From Candidatus Woesearchaeota archaeon (GTDB lineage Archaea > Nanobdellota > Nanobdellia > Woesearchaeales > ARS49): 64,000 nucleotides of DNA. Each line of letters opens with the position of its first letter. Within the stretch, counting starts at the first letter, position 1. Positions 3,904 to 60,484 of the stretch are shown piece by piece. The stretch spans positions 4,632 to 68,631 of the forward strand of contig JAWCRZ010000005.1 of assembly GCA_038868995.1 (NCBI GenBank), read 5' to 3'. The notes below the pieces were generated by a model. It made no database searches and had not been told where the DNA came from. It was given only the letters and a program-made list of their open reading frames with translations. Position numbers and translations under genes: made by a program.

Positions 3904-4590
3904 ATGAATCACCATTTGCTGCTGTTTTTGTGCATTGGCATTGTCATATTTTTCGCATTAATGCACGTTGAGATGCTGTCACTGACTGGCGCTGCGATTG
4001 TCAAAGATTACACAGGCAAGGAATCGTATGCAATGAACATGCACGCCACTGTCTTGAAATTTCTTCAAGTAGAAGGCATAACATACCCGCATCACGTATG
4101 CACTGAAATCGCGAAAGAACTTTATTTGAACATCGCCCAGCCCTCTGCTGTAGTTACAGCCGGCTTTGCAAGCTCAGGGCCAGAGCGCGTGGCAAGCATC
4201 AACTTTGTCACGGAATGGGACGATGTTTACGGCACCATCGATATTATTCATGGCAAAGAAATACTTTCTGATTACGATGCAGATACAATGATGAGCATCA
4301 GCGTAGAATCGATAGTCCGTCTGCCAAAAAGGGCGCGTGCAAACTTTTTCAGCCTGGACTTGTTTGGCTTCAGCAGGGACAGGTTTTACATTACAGAAGG
4401 AAAGTTTTCAACTCCGAGCTTTGACTGCTACTTTGGCAGAGAAAACGGCGAGTTAATGTGCGACTGCGACGCACACCCGATTGCAGGCATAGAAATAGCG
4501 GGCATAACCGGAGTAAGAGCACCCCTTGATATACGTGCAAAGCTGCAGGAAGAATTGGAGATTTCTAAACTTCAGCGTCAGAAGGGTTAA
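3904..4590 (+). CDS. hypothetical protein with N-terminal membrane anchor
   Basis: 228-aa ORF with N-terminal hydrophobic helix LLLFLCIGIVIFFALM. The stop codon TAA (4588-4590) lies inside MITE copy 1. Confidence 0.55.
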   Translation: MNHHLLLFLCIGIVIFFALMHVEMLSLTGAAIVKDYTGKESYAMNMHATVLKFLQVEGITYPHHVCTEIAKELYLNIAQPSAVVTAGFASSGPERVASINFVTEWDDVYGTIDIIHGKEILSDYDADTMMSISVESIVRLPKRARANFFSLDLFGFSRDRFYITEGKFSTPSFDCYFGRENGELMCDCDAHPIAGIEIAGITGVRAPLDIRAKLQEELEISKLQRQKG

Positions 4591-4714
4591 GTCAAGTTTC
4601 TGGTGCTAACTTGCCTTGGTCCTCTGGACTCATTTTTCGCAGGTGCGGAGGAGAGAAAAATAAACTCGGCAAAGCCGAGACAGAGAGGCCAGCACCATCA
4701 AGTTGACAGCACCC
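4585..4714 (+). mobile_element. MITE-like element copy 1 (subfamily A, 9-nt deletion variant)
   Basis: 130 bp, GGTTAAGTCAAG...GTTGACAGCACCC, flanked by GTCAGAAG / GCCAGAAG. Confidence 0.85.
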
Positions 4715-4727
4715 GCCAGAAGTAAAC

Positions 4728-4735
4728 TTTAAATA
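4728..4735 (+). promoter_or_regulatory. TATA box (TTTAAATA) for the 4764 gene
   Basis: AT-rich octamer 13 nt after the MITE end and about 29-41 nt before the candidate starts. Confidence 0.5.
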
Positions 4736-4763
4736 CTCCTGTACAAAACCATATATAACCTGT

Positions 4764-5057
4764 GTGAGTGATGCAATGCCGGTTTTAGAAAGGACAAAAA
4801 TAACAAAAGAGGATTTGGGCGAACTTGCCAATGTTTTTCTTGCTGAAATACCTTTTGAGTTAAAAGGGCAGCTGCCAGTTGCACATTTCTATCTTGTTGG
4901 GTGCGAACTCTGCATTGAGGCGCCTGACTACAGCGCACTTGTGCTTGCAGAACCCAATTATGTTAAAAAGTTTGCAAGCCCAAAATTTGTTGCAGTATAC
5001 GACAGTACATCTGAAAACGGCACACATCGTATTGCCATATACAGAAAGAACGAATAA
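4764..5057 (+). CDS. hypothetical protein
   Basis: 97-aa ORF (GTG at 4764, alternative ATG at 4776). It lies between two near-identical MITE copies. Confidence 0.5.
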   Translation: MSDAMPVLERTKITKEDLGELANVFLAEIPFELKGQLPVAHFYLVGCELCIEAPDYSALVLAEPNYVKKFASPKFVAVYDSTSENGTHRIAIYRKNE

Positions 5058-5295
5058 TGCCAACAACACACATTGAGAATCTCATTCAATTATATCTTGT
5101 TAATGTCTTGTCAATTCGTAATTATCAAAATCTCTTGTAAATCACCATCCCTGAAGATATAGACGCTTCTCTTTAATAGTGTCGGGACATCACGTACACT
5201 GTACGCAAGATGCAAAACCCTTTCAGATGCAAATAATTCACAAAGCACTGCCCATAAAAACAACAGGGCTAATTTCAATGTACCCATGCCAACAG

Positions 5296-5425
5296 GGTTA
5301 AGTCAAGTTTCTGGTGCTAACTTGCCTTGGTCCTCTGGACTCATTTTTCGCAGGTGCAGAGGAGAGAAAAATAAACTCGGCAAAGCCGAGGCAGAGCGGC
5401 CAGCACCATCAAGTTGACAGCACCC
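5296..5425 (+). mobile_element. MITE-like element copy 2 (subfamily A, 9-nt deletion variant)
   Basis: 130 bp with 3 mismatches to copy 1. Perfect 8-bp flanking repeat GCCAACAG. Confidence 0.9.
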
Positions 5426-5438
5426 GCCAACAGTAATA

Positions 5439-5446
5439 TTTATAAA
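5439..5446 (+). promoter_or_regulatory. TATA box (TTTATAAA) for the pilin-like gene
   Basis: Lies 13 nt after the MITE end. GAGGTG Shine-Dalgarno at 5478-5483 and ATG at 5490. Confidence 0.5.
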
Positions 5447-5489
5447 GGCAAAACGTAATCACGTTCTTTAGACAAAAGAGGTGTATGTA

Positions 5490-6137
5490 ATGTCGAAGAA
5501 AGGAGCGCTTGAGCTCTCCATCACAGCAATCGTTGTTCTCATCATCGCCATAACCGTACTGGGGCTGGGCATAGGATTCATCAAGAAGCAGTTTGGTGCA
5601 GGCACCGAACTTGTAACAAAAGAACTGTCAAACATCAAAGAACAGCTCAAGGAACAGGTGAGGACAGGAGGGGAACTGCTGGTGTTCTCTGTTCCCGAGC
5701 AGGTAGCCATCGGAAAGCCACAGTCGGTGCTCATAGGAGTCAGAAACACCGCCATGAATCCTGACGGAGACCGCGTCTGCTTCAGAGTAGAGGTTGTGTG
5801 CATAAAGCCATTCACTCCAAACGCGCCCTGCGTTTCAGACCAGCCAGGGCCTCCATACGATCCAGTGGCAGTCGGCGGTTATGACACTGAAAACAATGAT
5901 TTTGTCACCGGCAACCGCAACTGGTTCAAAAGCATACTCGGACAGTTCGACCTGAAAAACTTTGAAGGCGATGTCTATGACGCAACCATGCTCGTCCGCG
6001 GCATAAAGCCAGATGCATACCAAATGGAGATAAACGTGTACAAGGAGCCCAACGACAAATCGTGCAGAGACCAAGGCTTCTCGGACCCGGCAAAAGAATT
6101 ATACGCAAGCAAAACATTCATTTTGAACGTGGTGTAA
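5490..6137 (+). CDS. type IV pilin-like protein (class III signal peptide)
   Basis: N-terminus MSKKGALELSITAIVVLIIAITVLGLGIGF has a K-G / A-L-E cleavage-type motif followed by a hydrophobic helix. GAGGTG lies 6 nt upstream of the ATG. Confidence 0.65.
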   Translation: MSKKGALELSITAIVVLIIAITVLGLGIGFIKKQFGAGTELVTKELSNIKEQLKEQVRTGGELLVFSVPEQVAIGKPQSVLIGVRNTAMNPDGDRVCFRVEVVCIKPFTPNAPCVSDQPGPPYDPVAVGGYDTENNDFVTGNRNWFKSILGQFDLKNFEGDVYDATMLVRGIKPDAYQMEINVYKEPNDKSCRDQGFSDPAKELYASKTFILNVV

Positions 6138-6138
6138 A

Positions 6139-6360
6139 ATGGCAAAAAACAAAAGACGGCTGGCAGCGCACGAAGAATTCGAGATAATGAAAATAGTCCT
6201 TGACAAGTTCTTATGGATAGGCGCAGCGCTGATGTTCTGGGGAATATTCAAAAGCATAACAGACAGTTTTGTTGACGGATTCTGGTACATACTCGCGGGC
6301 GCTCTTGTCATGCTCGTGTTTGCATGGGTCATTATCAAGGAATTTGAAGCGATACGGTAA
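6139..6360 (+). CDS. small membrane protein (two predicted helices)
   Basis: 73-aa ORF starting 1 nt after the previous stop, with hydrophobic segments FLWIGAALMFWGIF and FWYILAGALVMLVFAWVII. Confidence 0.55.
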   Translation: MAKNKRRLAAHEEFEIMKIVLDKFLWIGAALMFWGIFKSITDSFVDGFWYILAGALVMLVFAWVIIKEFEAIR

Positions 6361-6420
6361 TATTCTTCTATGTTTATTCTTAATTTACCATAGAAAACTT
6401 TTCAATGCGCCCTCTTCTCA

Positions 6421-6545
6421 GGTTAAGTCACTCTCTGGTGCTGGCCGCACTGCCTCGACGTTGTCGAGGTGACTTTTCTCTCCCCGCACTTGCAAGGGGA
6501 GAAGAAAAGTCAGGCCAGCGCGGCACCATTAAGTTGACAGCACCC
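6421..6545 (+). mobile_element. MITE-like element copy 3 (subfamily B, interior inverted relative to A)
   Basis: 125 bp, GGTTAAGTCAC...GTTGACAGCACCC, flanked by TCTTCTCA / TCTTCTCG (up to CCCTCTTCTC on both sides). Confidence 0.85.
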
Positions 6546-6557
6546 TCTTCTCGTAAC

Positions 6558-6566
6558 TTTTATAAA
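6558..6566 (+). promoter_or_regulatory. TATA box (TTTTATAAA) for the lipoprotein gene
   Basis: Lies 12 nt after the MITE end and 24 nt before ATG 6590. Confidence 0.5.
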
Positions 6567-6589
6567 CAAGACAGTCAGTACATCTGCTT

Positions 6590-9476: not shown

Positions 9477-11336
9477 GTGAAGGCGGCAACCTTATTGATA
9501 TTATTGTTGCTTGCGACAGCAGCGTACGCGGCAAATGCAACCTTATCGCCGGCAACAGTATATGAAACAACAAAAGCGTGGCAAACGCTGAGTGTCGACA
9601 ACTATAAAGGCAGTTCTGTGATTTCAAAAGTTTCTGTAAGCTCTCCATCCCTCCAAATTACAAATGCCTCACTGTACTCCGGCTGGACAACAACCCAAAC
9701 CACAACGCTTGCAGAATGGAAAGACGGCACTATTGAAACAAATGTCAAAAATGCCGCATTTGAGTTCGAAGTCAGCGCAGGAACGGTGACAGATAACCTT
9801 ACAGTCAATGTCAGCGTGGCACTTGATTCTGCAGCAACAACGCTTACCATCACAATCCTCAACGATTACACGCCACCACTAATAACCAGCGTGACTCCAA
9901 ACGCTTATGCAAAAGCAAATAATCCCGCACAACCTGTCACTGCAACAGTCAGCGACCCGGAAACCGGTGTTGCATCAGTAAGCTATTCCTACAACAACTG
10001 CCTTGGCGGAGCAGATATTAACGTCACTCTTGCAAAAACAGGTGATGTTTACACCGGTGTGGCGGACTTCAGCTCATTTGACGAGGGAATGAAGGCATGC
10101 TACAAAATAACTGCAAAAAACACGCCGGGTGAAACAACAACGGTTACAGGAGAGTTAATCTTCGACGGAACACCGCCAACAGCAGTCATAATATCTCCAA
10201 CAACATTTGCGACAGAAACAACCACGTTCATCTTCAACGCATCGGACAACCTGGCAACCGTCTTAAGCTGCGAGGTCGCTGTTGGCACCATCACGCTGGC
10301 AACCCTCAATGTCAGCAACGGCACCACTGCTTCCACAACGCAAAACCTTACCGGCTTCCCTGAAGGAAGCACAAGCTGGAGCGTCACCTGCGCTGACGGC
10401 GTAGGACTAACAGTTACCAAGGCACAAGCAATCTTGCTGGATGTCTTCCCGCCAAGCATCACCCTTGAATACAATCCATTCCTTCCAAGAACAGTCACCA
10501 AATCATTCCTTGCAACAATACTGGACACAATCGGCCTGGCAAGCGTTGAAGCAACTTTTGATGGCAGCGACGTGCCACTAACGCAATCTGGAGACGCCTT
10601 CACAGGAAACATTGTTTCAAACACACTCGGAACAAAAACACTTTCTGTGGAAGCAATAGACGATGCAGGCCATATTGCAGTGAAAGAAGTCAATATAACC
10701 GTTGTGCCCAACCACATACTGACACTTGCACTGTCGCCAGGCACAGCCAACCCAGGAGAGACAATAACTGCATCAGGTAGCTTGGCAATTGACGGCAATG
10801 CCACGATAAATGAGATAACACTCAAAGAGCCCGGTGGCAATGAAGTCGTTGACATTGCAAACGGAACATACAGCACTTCATTCACCGCTCCAGAGCCGGG
10901 AAGCTACACAATTACAGCAGAATTCACCGAAAGCGGGTACACGTACAAGGCAGAAGCAACACTTACTGTTGTTGAAGCCGGTTCAACACAGCAAACGTAT
11001 TACAGCAGCGGAATAGGCGCAGAAGCGTGGAGAACAAGCGGTTACGTGAAGCCGGATGAACAGGAAACTCAAAACCCTGACGGCAACAGCAACCAGCAGA
11101 CGGAAGAAACACCGCCACCAGCTCCTGCTGAGTATGAACCATTGCAACCGGAACCACCCCGCTCAGGATTAACACCAAAGACAACAGGCGTCTTTGACCT
11201 TGACGGAACAATAAAATGGATTGCAATGCTTCTCGCGATGGCACTGCTAATAGGAATAGGCGCCTATGCCTGGAACAAGCGCGGCAAGAAAGAAGAAGAT
11301 GGCATTGACTGGAACGGCTATTTCAAAGATTCCTAA
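9477..11336 (+). CDS. secreted Thr-rich surface protein with Ig-like repeats and a C-terminal TM anchor
   Basis: GTG start after GAGGAG. Signal peptide MKAATLLILLLLATAAYA, many N-x-T/S sequons, and C-terminal WIAMLLAMALLIGIGAYAW followed by KRGKK. Confidence 0.7.
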   Translation: MKAATLLILLLLATAAYAANATLSPATVYETTKAWQTLSVDNYKGSSVISKVSVSSPSLQITNASLYSGWTTTQTTTLAEWKDGTIETNVKNAAFEFEVSAGTVTDNLTVNVSVALDSAATTLTITILNDYTPPLITSVTPNAYAKANNPAQPVTATVSDPETGVASVSYSYNNCLGGADINVTLAKTGDVYTGVADFSSFDEGMKACYKITAKNTPGETTTVTGELIFDGTPPTAVIISPTTFATETTTFIFNASDNLATVLSCEVAVGTITLATLNVSNGTTASTTQNLTGFPEGSTSWSVTCADGVGLTVTKAQAILLDVFPPSITLEYNPFLPRTVTKSFLATILDTIGLASVEATFDGSDVPLTQSGDAFTGNIVSNTLGTKTLSVEAIDDAGHIAVKEVNITVVPNHILTLALSPGTANPGETITASGSLAIDGNATINEITLKEPGGNEVVDIANGTYSTSFTAPEPGSYTITAEFTESGYTYKAEATLTVVEAGSTQQTYYSSGIGAEAWRTSGYVKPDEQETQNPDGNSNQQTEETPPPAPAEYEPLQPEPPRSGLTPKTTGVFDLDGTIKWIAMLLAMALLIGIGAYAWNKRGKKEEDGIDWNGYFKDS

Positions 11337-21589: not shown

Positions 21590-21602
21590 ATTGCTTCTAT
21601 GG

Positions 21603-21740
21603 GGTTAAGCCAAGTTTCTGGTGCCGGCTGTGGCCATGTCTTCTGGACTCATTTTCCCTCCTCCTCGCAGACTGGAAGAGAAAAAATGACCTCAGCGAAG
21701 TCAAGGCAGAGCTGCCCGCACCATTAAGTTGACTGGACCC
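21603..21740 (+). mobile_element. MITE-like element copy 4 (subfamily A, most diverged)
   Basis: 138 bp, GGTTAAGCCAAG...GTTGACTGGACCC, flanked by TTCTATGG / TTCTATAG. The internal hairpins are partly decayed. Confidence 0.8.
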
Positions 21741-21753
21741 TTCTATAGAAAGC

Positions 21754-21763
21754 TTTAAAAATA
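21754..21763 (+). promoter_or_regulatory. TATA box (TTTAAAAATA) for rpl15e
   Basis: Lies 13 nt after the MITE end and 22 nt before ATG 21785. Confidence 0.55.
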
Positions 21764-21784
21764 CCCCACTATAACCGCAAAACA

Positions 21785-22348
21785 ATGGGCATTTACAAAT
21801 ATCTTGTGCAAAACTGGCGCAAAGAAGGCATGCCGGCAGACCTGAAAAGGGAACGCTTGATAGCGTGGCGCAGGGAGCCGGTAACCAAAAGAATAGAAAG
21901 GCCCACGCGGCTTGACCGCGCCAAAGCACTTGGCTACAGAGCAAAGCAAGGCGTCTTCCTGGTAAGACAGCGCGTTTCAAAAGGAGGCCACAAGCGCCCT
22001 GACTGGAGCGGAGGCAGGCATTCACACAACATGGGAACACGCCTGAACCTGAGAAAAAACTACAAGTTAATAGCAGAAGAGCGTGCAAGCGTCGCATACC
22101 CGAATTGTGAAGTTCTAAACTCGTACTACGTTACTGAAGACGGCAAGCACTATTGGTTTGAGGTAATACTCGCCGACAGCGCGCACCCTGGAATTGCTGC
22201 TGACGAAAGATTTGCAGCAGCAAAAAGGCAGGCCAGAGTCCACCGCGGATTGACAAGCGCGGGCAGGAAAACAAGAGGCATGCGCCACAAAGGAATGGGT
22301 GCGGAAAAAGCACGGCCATCACGCAGAGCGCACTTCAGACGATTGTAA
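21785..22348 (+). CDS. rpl15e: 50S ribosomal protein L15e (eL15)
   Basis: MGIYKYLVQNWRKE... is a typical eL15 N-terminus; the protein is basic throughout. Confidence 0.9.
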   Translation: MGIYKYLVQNWRKEGMPADLKRERLIAWRREPVTKRIERPTRLDRAKALGYRAKQGVFLVRQRVSKGGHKRPDWSGGRHSHNMGTRLNLRKNYKLIAEERASVAYPNCEVLNSYYVTEDGKHYWFEVILADSAHPGIAADERFAAAKRQARVHRGLTSAGRKTRGMRHKGMGAEKARPSRRAHFRRL

Positions 22349-34516: not shown

Positions 34517-35580
34517 GCAAGGACTATTACAAAATACTCGGCGTGGAAAAAGGGGCTTCTCAGGAAGAAATCAAGTCCGCATACAAAAAATTAGCCAAGA
34601 AATACCATCCTGACATCAACAAAGAAGCAGGCGCTGCAGAAAAGTTCAAAGAAATCAATGAAGCAGCTGCAGTTCTCGGAGACCCTGAAAAAAGACAGCA
34701 ATACGACCAGTTCGGCACAGCAGGATTTAATGGACAGCAGTTCTCTGGCTTTGACTTCAGGGATTTTGCAGGCAATTTCAACTTCGACGAGATATTTGAC
34801 AATTTGTTCTCAGGATTCGGCTTCCGTACAGGAAGGCGTGGAAGACCGGGCAGGGATCTGGTGGCGGAAGTTGACGTAACAATGGAAGAAGTTGCAAAGG
34901 GCACAATGAGAGAAATAGAAATGCAAAGAATGGTTCAATGCGACAGGTGCGAAGGCAAAGGCGGAAGCGATTTCAACACTTGCAACACCTGCCAGGGACA
35001 AGGAATGGTAAGGCATGCAAGAAGAACGCCATTCGGCATGTTTGCAACAACTTCCACCTGCAACAAATGCAAAGGAACCGGTGAAGTTCCGGAAAAAATC
35101 TGCTCTGAATGTGACGGAGAAGGAAGAATAGTCAGCAGAGAGCCGGTAACAGTCAAAATTCCGCCAGGCGTTGAAGACGGCATGCGCTTGCGCGTGGCAG
35201 GAGCAGGCGAAGCAGGCGCAGAAGGAGCTCCAGCAGGCGATTTATACGTCATGGTTCACGTTCTTGACGACAAAAGATTTGTCAGGGAAGGCACAGACCT
35301 TGTTGTAGAAAAACAAATCAGCTTTGCAACTGCCTGCATAGGAGGAGAAACAACAGTGGAAACATTGGAAGGCAAGAAAAAAATCAACATAAAACCAGGA
35401 ACACAGAACAATTCTGAAATAAGATTGGAAGGAGAAGGACTTCCAGACATAAGAAGCGGCAGGCACGGCGATTTTGTAATCAAACTAACAATAGAAGTGC
35501 CCAAGAAGATAAGCAAAAAGCAGGCAGAACTGCTCAAAGAATTTGAAAAAGAAGGCAGGAAAAAGTGGGGATTGTTTTAA
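34513..35580 (+). CDS. dnaJ: co-chaperone DnaJ (Hsp40)
   Basis: J domain with HPD, G/F region, and four CxxCxGxG zinc motifs. Confidence 0.95.
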
Positions 35581-35768
35581 GCCAGGCTTTCAACATAATC
35601 CCTCATCTCATGCGCTTCATGCCAGTCAATCCTGCCAGCCTGCAGCAAAGTGCTGATAGCCAGCAAATCGTCGCTGAAATTGTTGTATTTCATGCTTATC
35701 ACCTCAAAAATATCAGAGACACGCATTTTTAAATCAATTATGAAGAGCTGATAGAGACCCTGAATCCG

Positions 35769-35907
35769 GGTTAAGTCAAGTTTCTGGTGCTAATTTGTTT
35801 TGGTCCTCTGGACTCATTTTCTCTCCTCCTCGCAGGTGCGGAGGAGAGAAAAATGACCTCGGCAAAGCCGAGGCAGAGCGGCCAGCACCAGAGAGTTGAC
35901 AGCACCC
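35769..35907 (+). mobile_element. MITE-like element copy 5 (subfamily A, most intact)
   Basis: 139 bp, flanked by TGAATCCG / TGAATCCA. Perfect 13-bp hairpin at 35817-35852 and 7-bp hairpin at 35857-35873. Confidence 0.9.
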
Positions 35908-35921
35908 TGAATCCATAAAGC

Positions 35922-35928
35922 TTAAAAG
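35922..35928 (+). promoter_or_regulatory. TATA-like box (TTAAAAG)
   Basis: Lies 14 nt after the MITE end and about 22 nt before ATG 35951. Confidence 0.4.
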
Positions 35929-35950
35929 GAGAAGAAAAGGCATTTTGCAC

Positions 35951-51325: not shown

Positions 51326-51360
51326 CCCATCACCCACTATGCGGTTGGTAAATTGGACAG

Positions 51361-51368
51361 TTTTTAAA
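51361..51368 (-). promoter_or_regulatory. TATA box (TTTAAAAA on the minus strand)
   Basis: Lies 13 nt from the MITE copy 6 end. Confidence 0.5.
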
Positions 51369-51381
51369 GCTTGCGACATAA

Positions 51382-51513
51382 CGGTGCTGTCAACTTAATG
51401 GTGCCGCGGCTGGTCTTTGACTGACTTTTCTTCTCCCCTTGCAAGTGCGGGGAGAGAAAAGTCACCTCGACAACGTCGAGGCGCGCGGCCAGCACCAGAG
51501 GGTTGGCTTAACC
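51382..51513 (-). mobile_element. MITE-like element copy 6 (subfamily B)
   Basis: 132 bp. The reverse complement reads GGTTAAGCCAAC...GTTGACAGCACCG. Flanked by CGACATAA / CGACAAAA. Confidence 0.85.
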
Positions 51514-51538
51514 CGACAAAAAATATTAAAGCAGCCCT

Positions 51539-60295: not shown

Positions 60296-60484
60296 ATGGC
60301 GCGGCTGATAAAAATAACGGACAAGCACCCAGCAAAAATTGAAATTGGAGGGCAGATAAAAAAAATCTGCATGTGCGGGTTGTCAAAAATCAGGCCATAC
60401 TGCGACGGCTCGCACCATCAAACCCATACTGAAGAGGATGGCAAGACCTACGTGTACGAGGATGGTCAGCGGAAAGAAGCATGA
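60296..60484 (+). CDS. CDGSH iron-sulfur domain protein
   Basis: [17 protein letters not shown] motif. Confidence 0.8.

Follow-up and report, generated by a model that had tools for sequence, protein, structure and literature searches.

A miniature transposable element found at one fixed distance and orientation upstream of BRE/TATA promoters in a Woesearchaeota archaeon

Results

Six copies of a MITE, each facing a promoter

We analyzed 64 kb of a 72.5-kb metagenome-assembled genome (MAG) contig of Candidatus Woesearchaeota, a DPANN archaeon (the window; the single window sampled). The window harbors six copies (c1 to c6) of a short repeat, a miniature inverted-repeat transposable element (MITE), and each copy lies at the same distance and in the same orientation upstream of a promoter. 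The host is archaeal by gene content, as shown by rpl15e and a family B DNA polymerase, and the rpl15e product agrees at 100% with an NCBI protein assigned to Candidatus Woesearchaeota. The GC content of the window is 45.5%, and over 6 kb its sequence is the same as that of a Logan contig from SRR27730035. A regular-expression search and an nhmmer profile agreed on exactly six copies, which are 125-139 nt long and have flanks that differ from copy to copy. The left end reads GGTTAAGyCA...TCTGGTGC and the right end, on the promoter side, reads GCACCAnnnAGTTGACAGCACCC (this terminus is also written ...GACAGCACCC, ...CACCATTAAGTTGACAGCACCC, or ...AGTTGACAGCACCC). The terminal 22-23 nt are imperfect inverted repeats of each other but are distinguishable: 5′ ends of different copies agree at 18-22 of 22 positions, whereas a 5′ end and the reverse complement of a 3′ end agree at 15-18 of 23. 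No reading frame is open through all copies. Each strand is predicted to fold into a long hairpin with two inner hairpins, in which the terminal inverted repeats (TIRs) pair (z-scores of -3.4 to -8.3), and runs of four to six T (T4-T6) are present on both strands.

All six copies are flanked by 8-bp direct repeats that match at seven or eight of the eight positions. The duplicated 8-mers of c1 to c6 (GyCAGAAG, GCCAACAG, TCTTCTCr, TTCTATrG, TGAATCCr, and TTwTGTCG) all differ, are mutually unrelated, and have no consensus. With the TIRs, these target-site duplications (TSDs), and the empty sites found in relatives (see below), the repeat is a bona fide MITE, as the initial annotation of this DNA had proposed. 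A structured RNA gene was also considered: no Rfam family and no tRNA was found, and the TSDs and empty sites rule this candidate out.

The distance to the promoter is identical in all copies

In archaea, the TATA box is bound by the TATA-binding protein (TBP) and the purine-rich B recognition element (BRE) just upstream of it by transcription factor B (TFB), and the order of BRE and TATA fixes the direction of transcription. We built a 16-nt promoter matrix (RWAARN TTTWTAWA NN) from 28 upstream regions of window genes without a MITE. Many of these training sites start 36 nt before the start codon, fitting leaderless archaeal transcripts. When 40 nt outward from each element end were scanned with this matrix, the best match to the right of the element was at offset 7 in six of six copies, with zero spread, at the scores listed in Table 1; adjacent offsets scored far lower. 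The geometry is the same throughout, with the last duplicated base being position 1 of the BRE and the TATA box beginning 14 nt from the element. Outward scans from the left end gave no consistent match to the matrix, and inside the element no match exceeded 4.3 bits. From the first TATA base to the start codon we counted 30-31 nt at c3, c4, and c5 (leaderless type) and 43-51 nt at c1, c2, and c6, where ribosome-binding sites resembling GGTGA/GAGGTG are present.

The initial annotation had given gaps of 13, 13, 12, 13, 14, and 13 nt between element and box, and these were reproduced exactly as counted, the values of 12 and 14 arising from the choice of the first T in TTTTATAAA and CTTAAAAG. 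Its description of the gap as the 8-bp duplicated target plus 4-6 nt holds for each copy, as do its statements that the same end always faces the promoter (six of six) and that the duplicated targets share no consensus. The start codons, placed there 20-45 nt further on, lie slightly farther away than that at some copies.

In the null model, the six copies and one TSD each were excised, and insertions into the non-coding DNA were then drawn at random for both position and orientation. The tail probabilities per site at offset 7 ranged from 4e-4 to 1.1e-2, and Fisher’s method combined them to a chi2 of 75.8 on 12 degrees of freedom (p = 2.6e-11). Even under a restrictive null, in which insertions survive only in a 12-nt zone and selection fixes their orientation, the probability that five further copies fall at the offset of the first is 4e-6. 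The placement and polarity of the copies are far too exact for chance. Within the window, chance is excluded.

Table 1 Coordinates of the MITE copies and associated features in the window
Feature	Position	Strand	Description
MITE c1	4585-4714	+	Subfamily A, 130 nt
c1 TSDs	4577-4584; 4715-4722		GTCAGAAG; GCCAGAAG
c1 BRE/TATA	4722-4737	+	GTAAAC TTTAAATA CT, 14.2 bits
c1 downstream gene	ATG 4776	+	Open reading frame (ORF) listed from GTG 4764
221-nt segment	5067-5287		Lacking in relatives L096 and L097
MITE c2	5296-5425	+	Subfamily A, 130 nt, 95% identical to c1
c2 TSDs	5288-5295; 5426-5433		Both GCCAACAG, 8/8
c2 BRE/TATA	5433-5448	+	GTAATA TTTATAAA GG, 8.6 bits
c2 downstream gene	ATG 5490	+	218 aa
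MITE c3	6421-6545	+	Subfamily B, 125 nt
c3 TSDs	6413-6420; 6546-6553		TCTTCTCA; TCTTCTCG
c3 BRE/TATA	6553-6568	+	GTAACT TTTATAAA CA, 15.2 bits
c3 downstream gene	ATG 6590	+	459 aa; ATG 31 nt from first TATA base
MITE c4	21603-21740	+	Subfamily A, 138 nt; copy on which the initial annotation centered
c4 TSDs	21595-21602; 21741-21748		TTCTATGG; TTCTATAG
c4 BRE/TATA	21748-21763	+	GAAAGC TTTAAAAA TA, 13.0 bits
c4 downstream gene	ATG 21785	+	rpl15e, Pfam PF00827
MITE c5	35769-35907	+	Subfamily A, 139 nt; between divergent promoters
c5 TSDs	35761-35768; 35908-35915		TGAATCCG; TGAATCCA
c5 BRE/TATA	35915-35930	+	ATAAAG CTTAAAAG GA, 5.3 bits, weakest of six
c5 downstream gene	ATG 35951	+	218-aa membrane protein
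MITE c6	51382-51513	-	Subfamily B, 132 nt; between back-to-back divergent promoters
c6 TSDs	51514-51521; 51374-51381		TTTTGTCG; TTATGTCG (element strand)
c6 BRE/TATA	51359-51374	-	GCAAGC TTTAAAAA CT, 12.9 bits
c6 downstream gene	ATG 51325	-	TPR (tetratricopeptide repeat) protein, TPR domains detected

Relatives carry the same promoters without the element

Empty sites were compared for c1 to c4 in Woesearchaeota contigs whose proteins are about 81-84% identical to those of the window. The c4 site is empty in L033 and L034, the c2 site in L096 and L097, and the c3 site in L097 and L098, and a related empty site for c1 is found in L096. The orthologous empty sites hold a single copy of the target each. 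At c2, c3, and c4, relatives without the element have preserved both box and leader: the c2 promoter and 5′ untranslated region are kept in L096 and L097, and the promoter and leader of rpl15e, at c4, are kept in all four related sequences of the alignment. As relatives carry the promoters of these four copies without the element, these promoters pre-date the insertions. The boxes at c2, c3, and c4 are thus probably working promoters older than the insertions, their conservation being the best evidence available. That the AT-rich boxes are promoters, as the initial annotation had assumed, is also consistent with their fit to the BRE/TATA consensus of the window and with their distance to the start codons.

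Unrelated insertions were seen at the edges of promoters in the same relatives. In L096 (Logan SRR30312860), a 112-nt element with the ends TGTCAAG.../...CGTGACA, unrelated to the MITE, occupies positions 2237-2348 and splits the BRE (TAATA) from the TATA box (TTTATAAAC) of the promoter of the 459-aa gene; no duplication was seen around it, and it is single-copy in the data compared. At the rpl15e promoter of L031 (9915-9962) and also of L032, an insertion of about 48 nt lies between GAAACC repeats, which are the BRE itself; L033 lacks it, although its rpl15e is identical. In this clade, the stretch of roughly 15 nt that precedes the TATA box seems to be a general hot spot for insertions and deletions.

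Targets and neighborhoods of the individual copies

The genome is extremely compact. By a rough gene map, about 94% of the window is coding, and 3979 nt (6.3%) are non-coding after excision of the MITEs. Upstream stop codons even lie inside the BRE/TATA of the next gene (window 4715-4737, L096 375-384, and L097 2161-2171). The c1 and c3 targets are the final eight coding nucleotides of the upstream gene. At c1, the original TAA stop of this gene falls within the BRE, and the upstream ORF (3904-4590) now terminates in ...AAG GGT TAA, the TAA being supplied by the left end of the element; the same stop-restoring frame would apply to the ancestral c3 site. Before insertion, only about 3-12 nt of spacer existed at c2, c4, and c6, whereas c5 entered a spacer with about 25 nt free. 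The two promoters flanking c6 are only 3 nt apart, and the right end of c6 is at the canonical offset 7 to one of them while its left end is at offset 4 to the other. Elsewhere in the window, the element is absent from non-coding stretches of about 94-240 nt, such as 60296-60389, 37829-38008, and 2173-2410.

The first three copies occupy three consecutive promoters within 2 kb (4585-6545), and this clustering, with the close similarity of c1 and c2, suggests local hopping. The 8-bp target of c2 is present three times in tandem, around the lineage-specific 221-nt segment and around c2. The borders of this segment are GCCAACAa (5059-5066) and GCCAACAG, the same target as that of c2. The segment is single-copy, has no recognizable TIR, and contains a minus-strand ORF of 58 aa (5111-5287). 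This arrangement suggests that the segment and c2 are two insertions at the same cut positions.

Orientation is a property of the ends, which are of IS256-family type

Copies c3 and c6, which form subfamily B, carry their interior in the opposite orientation to subfamily A. Their interiors are 0.70-0.74 identical to the reverse complement of those of c1, c2, and c5, vs 0.57-0.63 in direct comparison, and a 54-nt interior stretch is 89% complementary between the two orientations. Likewise, a side hairpin, CCTCGrC...GyCGAGG, is in the left arm in c3 and c6 and in the right arm otherwise. The terminal 22 nt of c3 and c6 nevertheless keep their polarity, so that orientation is a property of the unlike ends and not of the cargo.

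By sequence, the ends are of IS256-family type. The right end, ...CACCATTAAGTTGACAGCACC, agrees with the right inverted repeat of ISCni1 (...CACAATTAAGTTGACATTACC), an insertion sequence (IS) of the IS256 family, at 18 of 21 positions and in register with the terminus. The inverted repeats of ISMbu6, an archaeal IS256 member, and of IS1113 (...CTTGACAGACCC) also resemble it. We estimate the chance of such a match at about 1e-4 after correction for multiple comparisons. In IS256 and other prokaryotic Mutator-like elements, the direct repeats measure 8-9 bp and the inverted repeats, which end in C, 18-39 bp (PMC3942029), and the MITE shows both traits in its 8-bp duplication and its inverted repeats with terminal C. 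It also resembles the three IS256-family elements in starting with G; the differences are that it has no transposase gene and that its choice of target is promoter-specific. The TTGACA of the promoter-side end was considered as a bacterial -35 box and rejected: such a box is irrelevant in an archaeon, and this motif is a common trait of IS256-family inverted repeats.

One related element was found outside the window

A pattern of both ends had no match in the GTDB genomes, and the 28 matches of the 5′-end pattern in JGI metagenomes were all due to chance. So were the 60 matches of the 3′-end pattern in genomes, with the exception of L086, another Woesearchaeota MAG, which is the only real match among 185,579 species genomes. 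The L086 element (4811-5008) is 198 nt long, has the ends GGTACGGTCAACTTAATGGTGCC and GGCACCCCATTAAGTTGACACTATC, and is flanked by an exact 8-bp TSD, AAACCATC. Its TTGACA-bearing end faces a strong BRE/TATA (AAAAGC TTTATAAT, 13.4 bits), and a gene of 849 aa follows this box about 25 nt further on. This element supports a promoter-proximal habit of the family and not a universal spacing.

Pfam searches with 20 ORFs of the window detected no transposase gene, and no cognate autonomous element was found there or in the pattern scans of genomes, metagenomes, and viruses. A search of the protein database with the concatenated reading frames of the MITE had no matches. Look-ups of exact proteins at both ends of the window led to no record or to a Logan contig that does not reach past the window. 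The nhmmer profile detected no degenerate or solo-end copies in the window or in the relatives, and no MITE families were found in a 20-kb stretch of L031, the closest relative. The viral scans gave one chance match and one odd match. The latter, L100 (IMG/VR UViG_3300023284_001128, 6300-6345), has sequences resembling the right end and the left end abutted with a 3-nt spacer (CACCATTAAGTTGACAGTTCC GCG GGTTAAGTCAAATTC). This arrangement resembles an IS256 circle junction and lies inside a viral ORF of 182 aa; it has no other likeness to the element.

Discussion

We found six insertions of one MITE at the same distance and in the same orientation upstream of BRE/TATA promoters. In this respect the element resembles transposons of bacteria and yeast that target promoters, and it would be their archaeal counterpart. 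In a genome this compact, selection must matter for the survival of copies, and the initial annotation had offered as an alternative that only insertions at this position are tolerated or useful. Insertion would then be random, and survivors would be found only here and in this orientation, perhaps because the element serves as a terminator or insulator. The scarcity of non-coding DNA, the stop codons within the next BRE/TATA, the short spacers at c2, c4, and c6 before insertion, and the insertions at promoter edges in L096 (2237-2348) and L031 (9915-9962) are all in line with such a filter, and the hairpins and T runs on both strands of the element would suit a terminator. A filter of this kind does not explain an offset that is identical to the nucleotide in six of six copies, which stays improbable even in the 12-nt zone with fixed orientation. 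Moreover, the c5 spacer left room for other positions, c1 and c3 were inserted into coding sequence, and longer non-coding stretches are unoccupied. As the interior of the element is present in both orientations and the ends are not, a terminator or insulator function that depends on orientation is unlikely to be what causes the polarity. We therefore regard random insertion followed by selection as improbable, although tolerance may remain a contributing filter.

Another explanation would be that the mobile unit carries the promoter with it or that the copies are structured RNA genes of one family. The 3′ flank can be aligned across copies and the predicted fold is strong, as either would have it. 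However, a TSD separates every element from its box, which places the box outside the duplicated unit; relatives keep the promoters at empty sites, which contradicts this explanation; and neither an internal promoter above the 4.3 bits given above nor an Rfam match was found. We consider this explanation most improbable. By contrast, the zero spread of the offset, the coding targets of c1 and c3, the free spacer at c5, the canonical offset of c6, the reuse of the c2 target, and the unoccupied stretches all point to a site chosen by the transposase. That the transposase directs insertion to promoters, whether it reads them through a factor or by sequence, is in our opinion probable.

How the promoter would be recognized is less clear. 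In the mechanism we propose, the MITE would be a non-autonomous DDE transposon of IS256-family type, mobilized by a transposase encoded elsewhere in the genome; as the window has no transposase gene, we infer that this enzyme must act in trans. The transposase would select its target by the promoter and not by the duplicated 8 bp. It would dock on a promoter that is bound by TBP/TFB or bent and cut the first free DNA upstream of the complex, with 8-bp staggered cuts at -13 to -6 from the first TATA base. The unlike ends would give an asymmetric complex of transposase and ends and hence the polarity, with the ...CACCATTAAGTTGACAGCACCC end always joined on the promoter side. Such a duplication would spare the BRE, the TATA box, and the leader, and where the upstream TAA lies in the BRE, the left end (GGT TAA G...) would provide an in-frame stop one codon later. 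With the promoter spared and the stop restored, the element could spread even though the genome has hardly any intergenic DNA. Parallels would be TnGBS with the bacterial initiation complex, as has been proposed, and Ty3 with TFIIIB, which is known.

It is also possible, though we find it rather doubtful, that the transposase or its DNA-binding domain reads the sequence or intrinsic shape of the BRE/TATA on naked DNA and cuts a set distance away, independently of TBP and TFB. The zero variance of the offset would fit such a reading, as would the bases shared by the targets (A-A at matrix positions 3-4, T at 8, and A at 10 and 12); the A at position 10 is present in only about half of the remaining strong promoters. 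The L086 element, with its different but fixed-looking spacing, is what a diverged DNA-binding specificity might give. An AT-rich target defined by its sequence, AANATNTT, is also known from ISH6, a Mutator-like IS of archaea (PMC3942029). On the other hand, poor matches were targeted (c5, CTTAAAAG, and c2), such a transposase would compete with TBP/TFB for the same DNA, and no conserved motif is found beyond the genome’s own definition of a promoter. Docking on TBP/TFB-held or bent promoter DNA by an IS256-like transposase acting in trans is a reading that we regard as almost evenly balanced. It fits the TSDs without consensus and the use of the weak c5 box at exactly the same spacing, and every feature common to the six targets belongs to the BRE/TATA, the binding site of TBP/TFB.

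Several points weigh against docking on the bound promoter. The sample consists of six copies only, from one 64-kb MAG window. The motif AA-N2-yTTA is common to the six targets and includes an A at matrix position 10 that only 8 of the 18 strongest other promoters have, which hints at direct reading of the sequence. The L086 element is at offset 12 and not 7, 5 nt further from the TATA box. Insertions of the IS256 family were reported to be random in bacteria (PMC3942029). Neither a transposase gene nor an autonomous partner was found in the searches described above. The compactness of the genome means that purifying selection also shapes the positions of surviving copies, and unrelated small insertions occupy promoter edges in relatives. 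On balance, we lean slightly toward the TBP/TFB-bound or bent promoter over direct reading. To the initial annotation, placement had looked directed by position or structure and not by sequence; the precision it noted is indeed not due to chance, but with AA-N2-yTTA shared by all targets the sequence itself may be read out.

Promoter targeting by TnGBS, ISLre2, and ISKra4 is reported by Brochet 2009 and Guerillot 2014. Insertions of the TnGBS integrative and conjugative elements (ICEs), of ISLre2, and of the ISKra4 group lie upstream of sigma-A promoters, at 15-17 bp from the -35 box (Guerillot 2014, PMC3942029). Their transposases are Mutator-like DDE enzymes (“p-MULT 3/4”), and their right inverted repeat adjoins the promoter (PMC3942029). 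Orientation depends on the dissymmetry of the inverted repeats, as elements with symmetric repeats insert both ways (PMC3942029). Contact with the initiation complex was proposed by analogy with Ty3 and TFIIIB, and a signature motif of the transposase between domains N1 and N2 was linked to the targeting of promoters (PMC3942029). IS256 proper (p-MULT 1) was found to insert randomly in that study, which used sigma-A models only, even for archaeal elements (PMC3942029). In its Table S2, the flanks of the left inverted repeat of Methanosarcina IS256 elements show no fixed box by eye (PMC3942029).

Similar to these bacterial elements, the MITE is found at a fixed short distance upstream of the promoter (13 nt from the TATA box), has a conserved orientation with one inverted repeat proximal to the promoter and unequal ends, and has direct and inverted repeats of the same type (8-9 bp, and 18-39 bp ending in C). 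However, its target is the archaeal BRE/TATA and not a sigma-A promoter, and it is not an IS or an ICE but a MITE of 125-139 nt with IS256-like (p-MULT 1) ends. It works like TnGBS, ISLre2, and ISKra4 but is not a member of these groups.

In yeast, the integrase of Ty3 interacts with TFIIIB/TFIIIC (PMC3942029). The likeness to the MITE would be that a TBP-containing complex positions integration to the nucleotide, TFIIIB comprising TBP and Brf1, a homolog of TFB/TFIIB, so that the archaeal element would rely on a landmark of the same class. Ty3 differs in being a retroelement with a retroviral-type integrase, which inserts at the transcription start rather than upstream of a BRE, and tethering is demonstrated for Ty3 where we only infer it for the MITE. 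TRE5-A of Dictyostelium is a similar element that targets Pol III genes. Among archaeal elements, ISH6 belongs to the Mutator superfamily and has an 8-bp duplication as well, and its authors suggested that its AT-rich target might bias insertion toward promoters (PMC3942029). ISH6 duplicates the AT-rich motif itself, whereas the 8 bp duplicated by the MITE have no consensus and lie beside the BRE/TATA, and the polarity of the MITE is fixed. Finally, some ISs are placed at a fixed distance and orientation beside a protein-binding site, but there the landmark is a recombination site, and the IS family and domain of life are others.

Promoter-targeted, oriented DDE transposition is thus documented in bacteria (sigma-A) and factor-tethered integration in eukaryotes. 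In the literature, including a 2026 survey of archaeal IS elements, we found nothing comparable on an archaeal MITE or IS that targets TATA/BRE. The initial annotation’s remark that no such archaeal MITE had been described stands in this respect; it had missed the bacterial precedent of TnGBS, ISLre2, and ISKra4 and the IS256-type ends. If confirmed, our observations would mean that transposases of the Mutator/IS256 type adapted landing upstream of promoters to TBP/TFB transcription, and they would explain how an element multiplies in a DPANN genome that is about 94% coding and in which stop codons overlap the next promoter. Whether the transposase binds TFB/TBP or reads DNA would then be a tractable experimental question. 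We put forward tentatively, and with somewhat less assurance than docking as such, the tethering of an archaeal DDE transposase (IS256/Mutator-like) to the promoter with its bound TBP/TFB, with integration at the upstream border of the pre-initiation complex and a polarity given by the BRE-to-TATA direction. If tethering is true, the MITE would be a prokaryotic counterpart of Ty3-TFIIIB targeting, and “safe-haven” integration through TBP and a TFIIB-family factor would operate in archaea as in eukaryotes. Each copy would then be a natural marker, precise to the nucleotide, of a functional promoter in uncultured DPANN archaea. Possible uses include promoter annotation in uncultured archaea and a basis for tools for promoter-proximal insertion.

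Additional observations on neighboring genes

Between the 73-aa and 459-aa genes, a gene of 184-191 aa is present in L096 (1680-2234) and L097 (1596-2171) and missing from the window and L098. The window retains about 60 nt there (6361-6420), including the last few bases of this gene beside the c3 target. Upstream of rpl15e, L031 (about 9687-9745), L032, and L033 have a 59-nt insertion in the leader of a small zinc-ribbon gene, with CTGGAGGG repeats at its borders; it is missing from the window and from L034. Divergent from the gene associated with c5, a minus-strand ORF of about 38 aa (35577-35693), which looks unannotated, comes with a strong ribosome-binding site (GAGGTG) and with a TATA box of its own at about 35723-35736, and its stop overlaps that of DnaJ.

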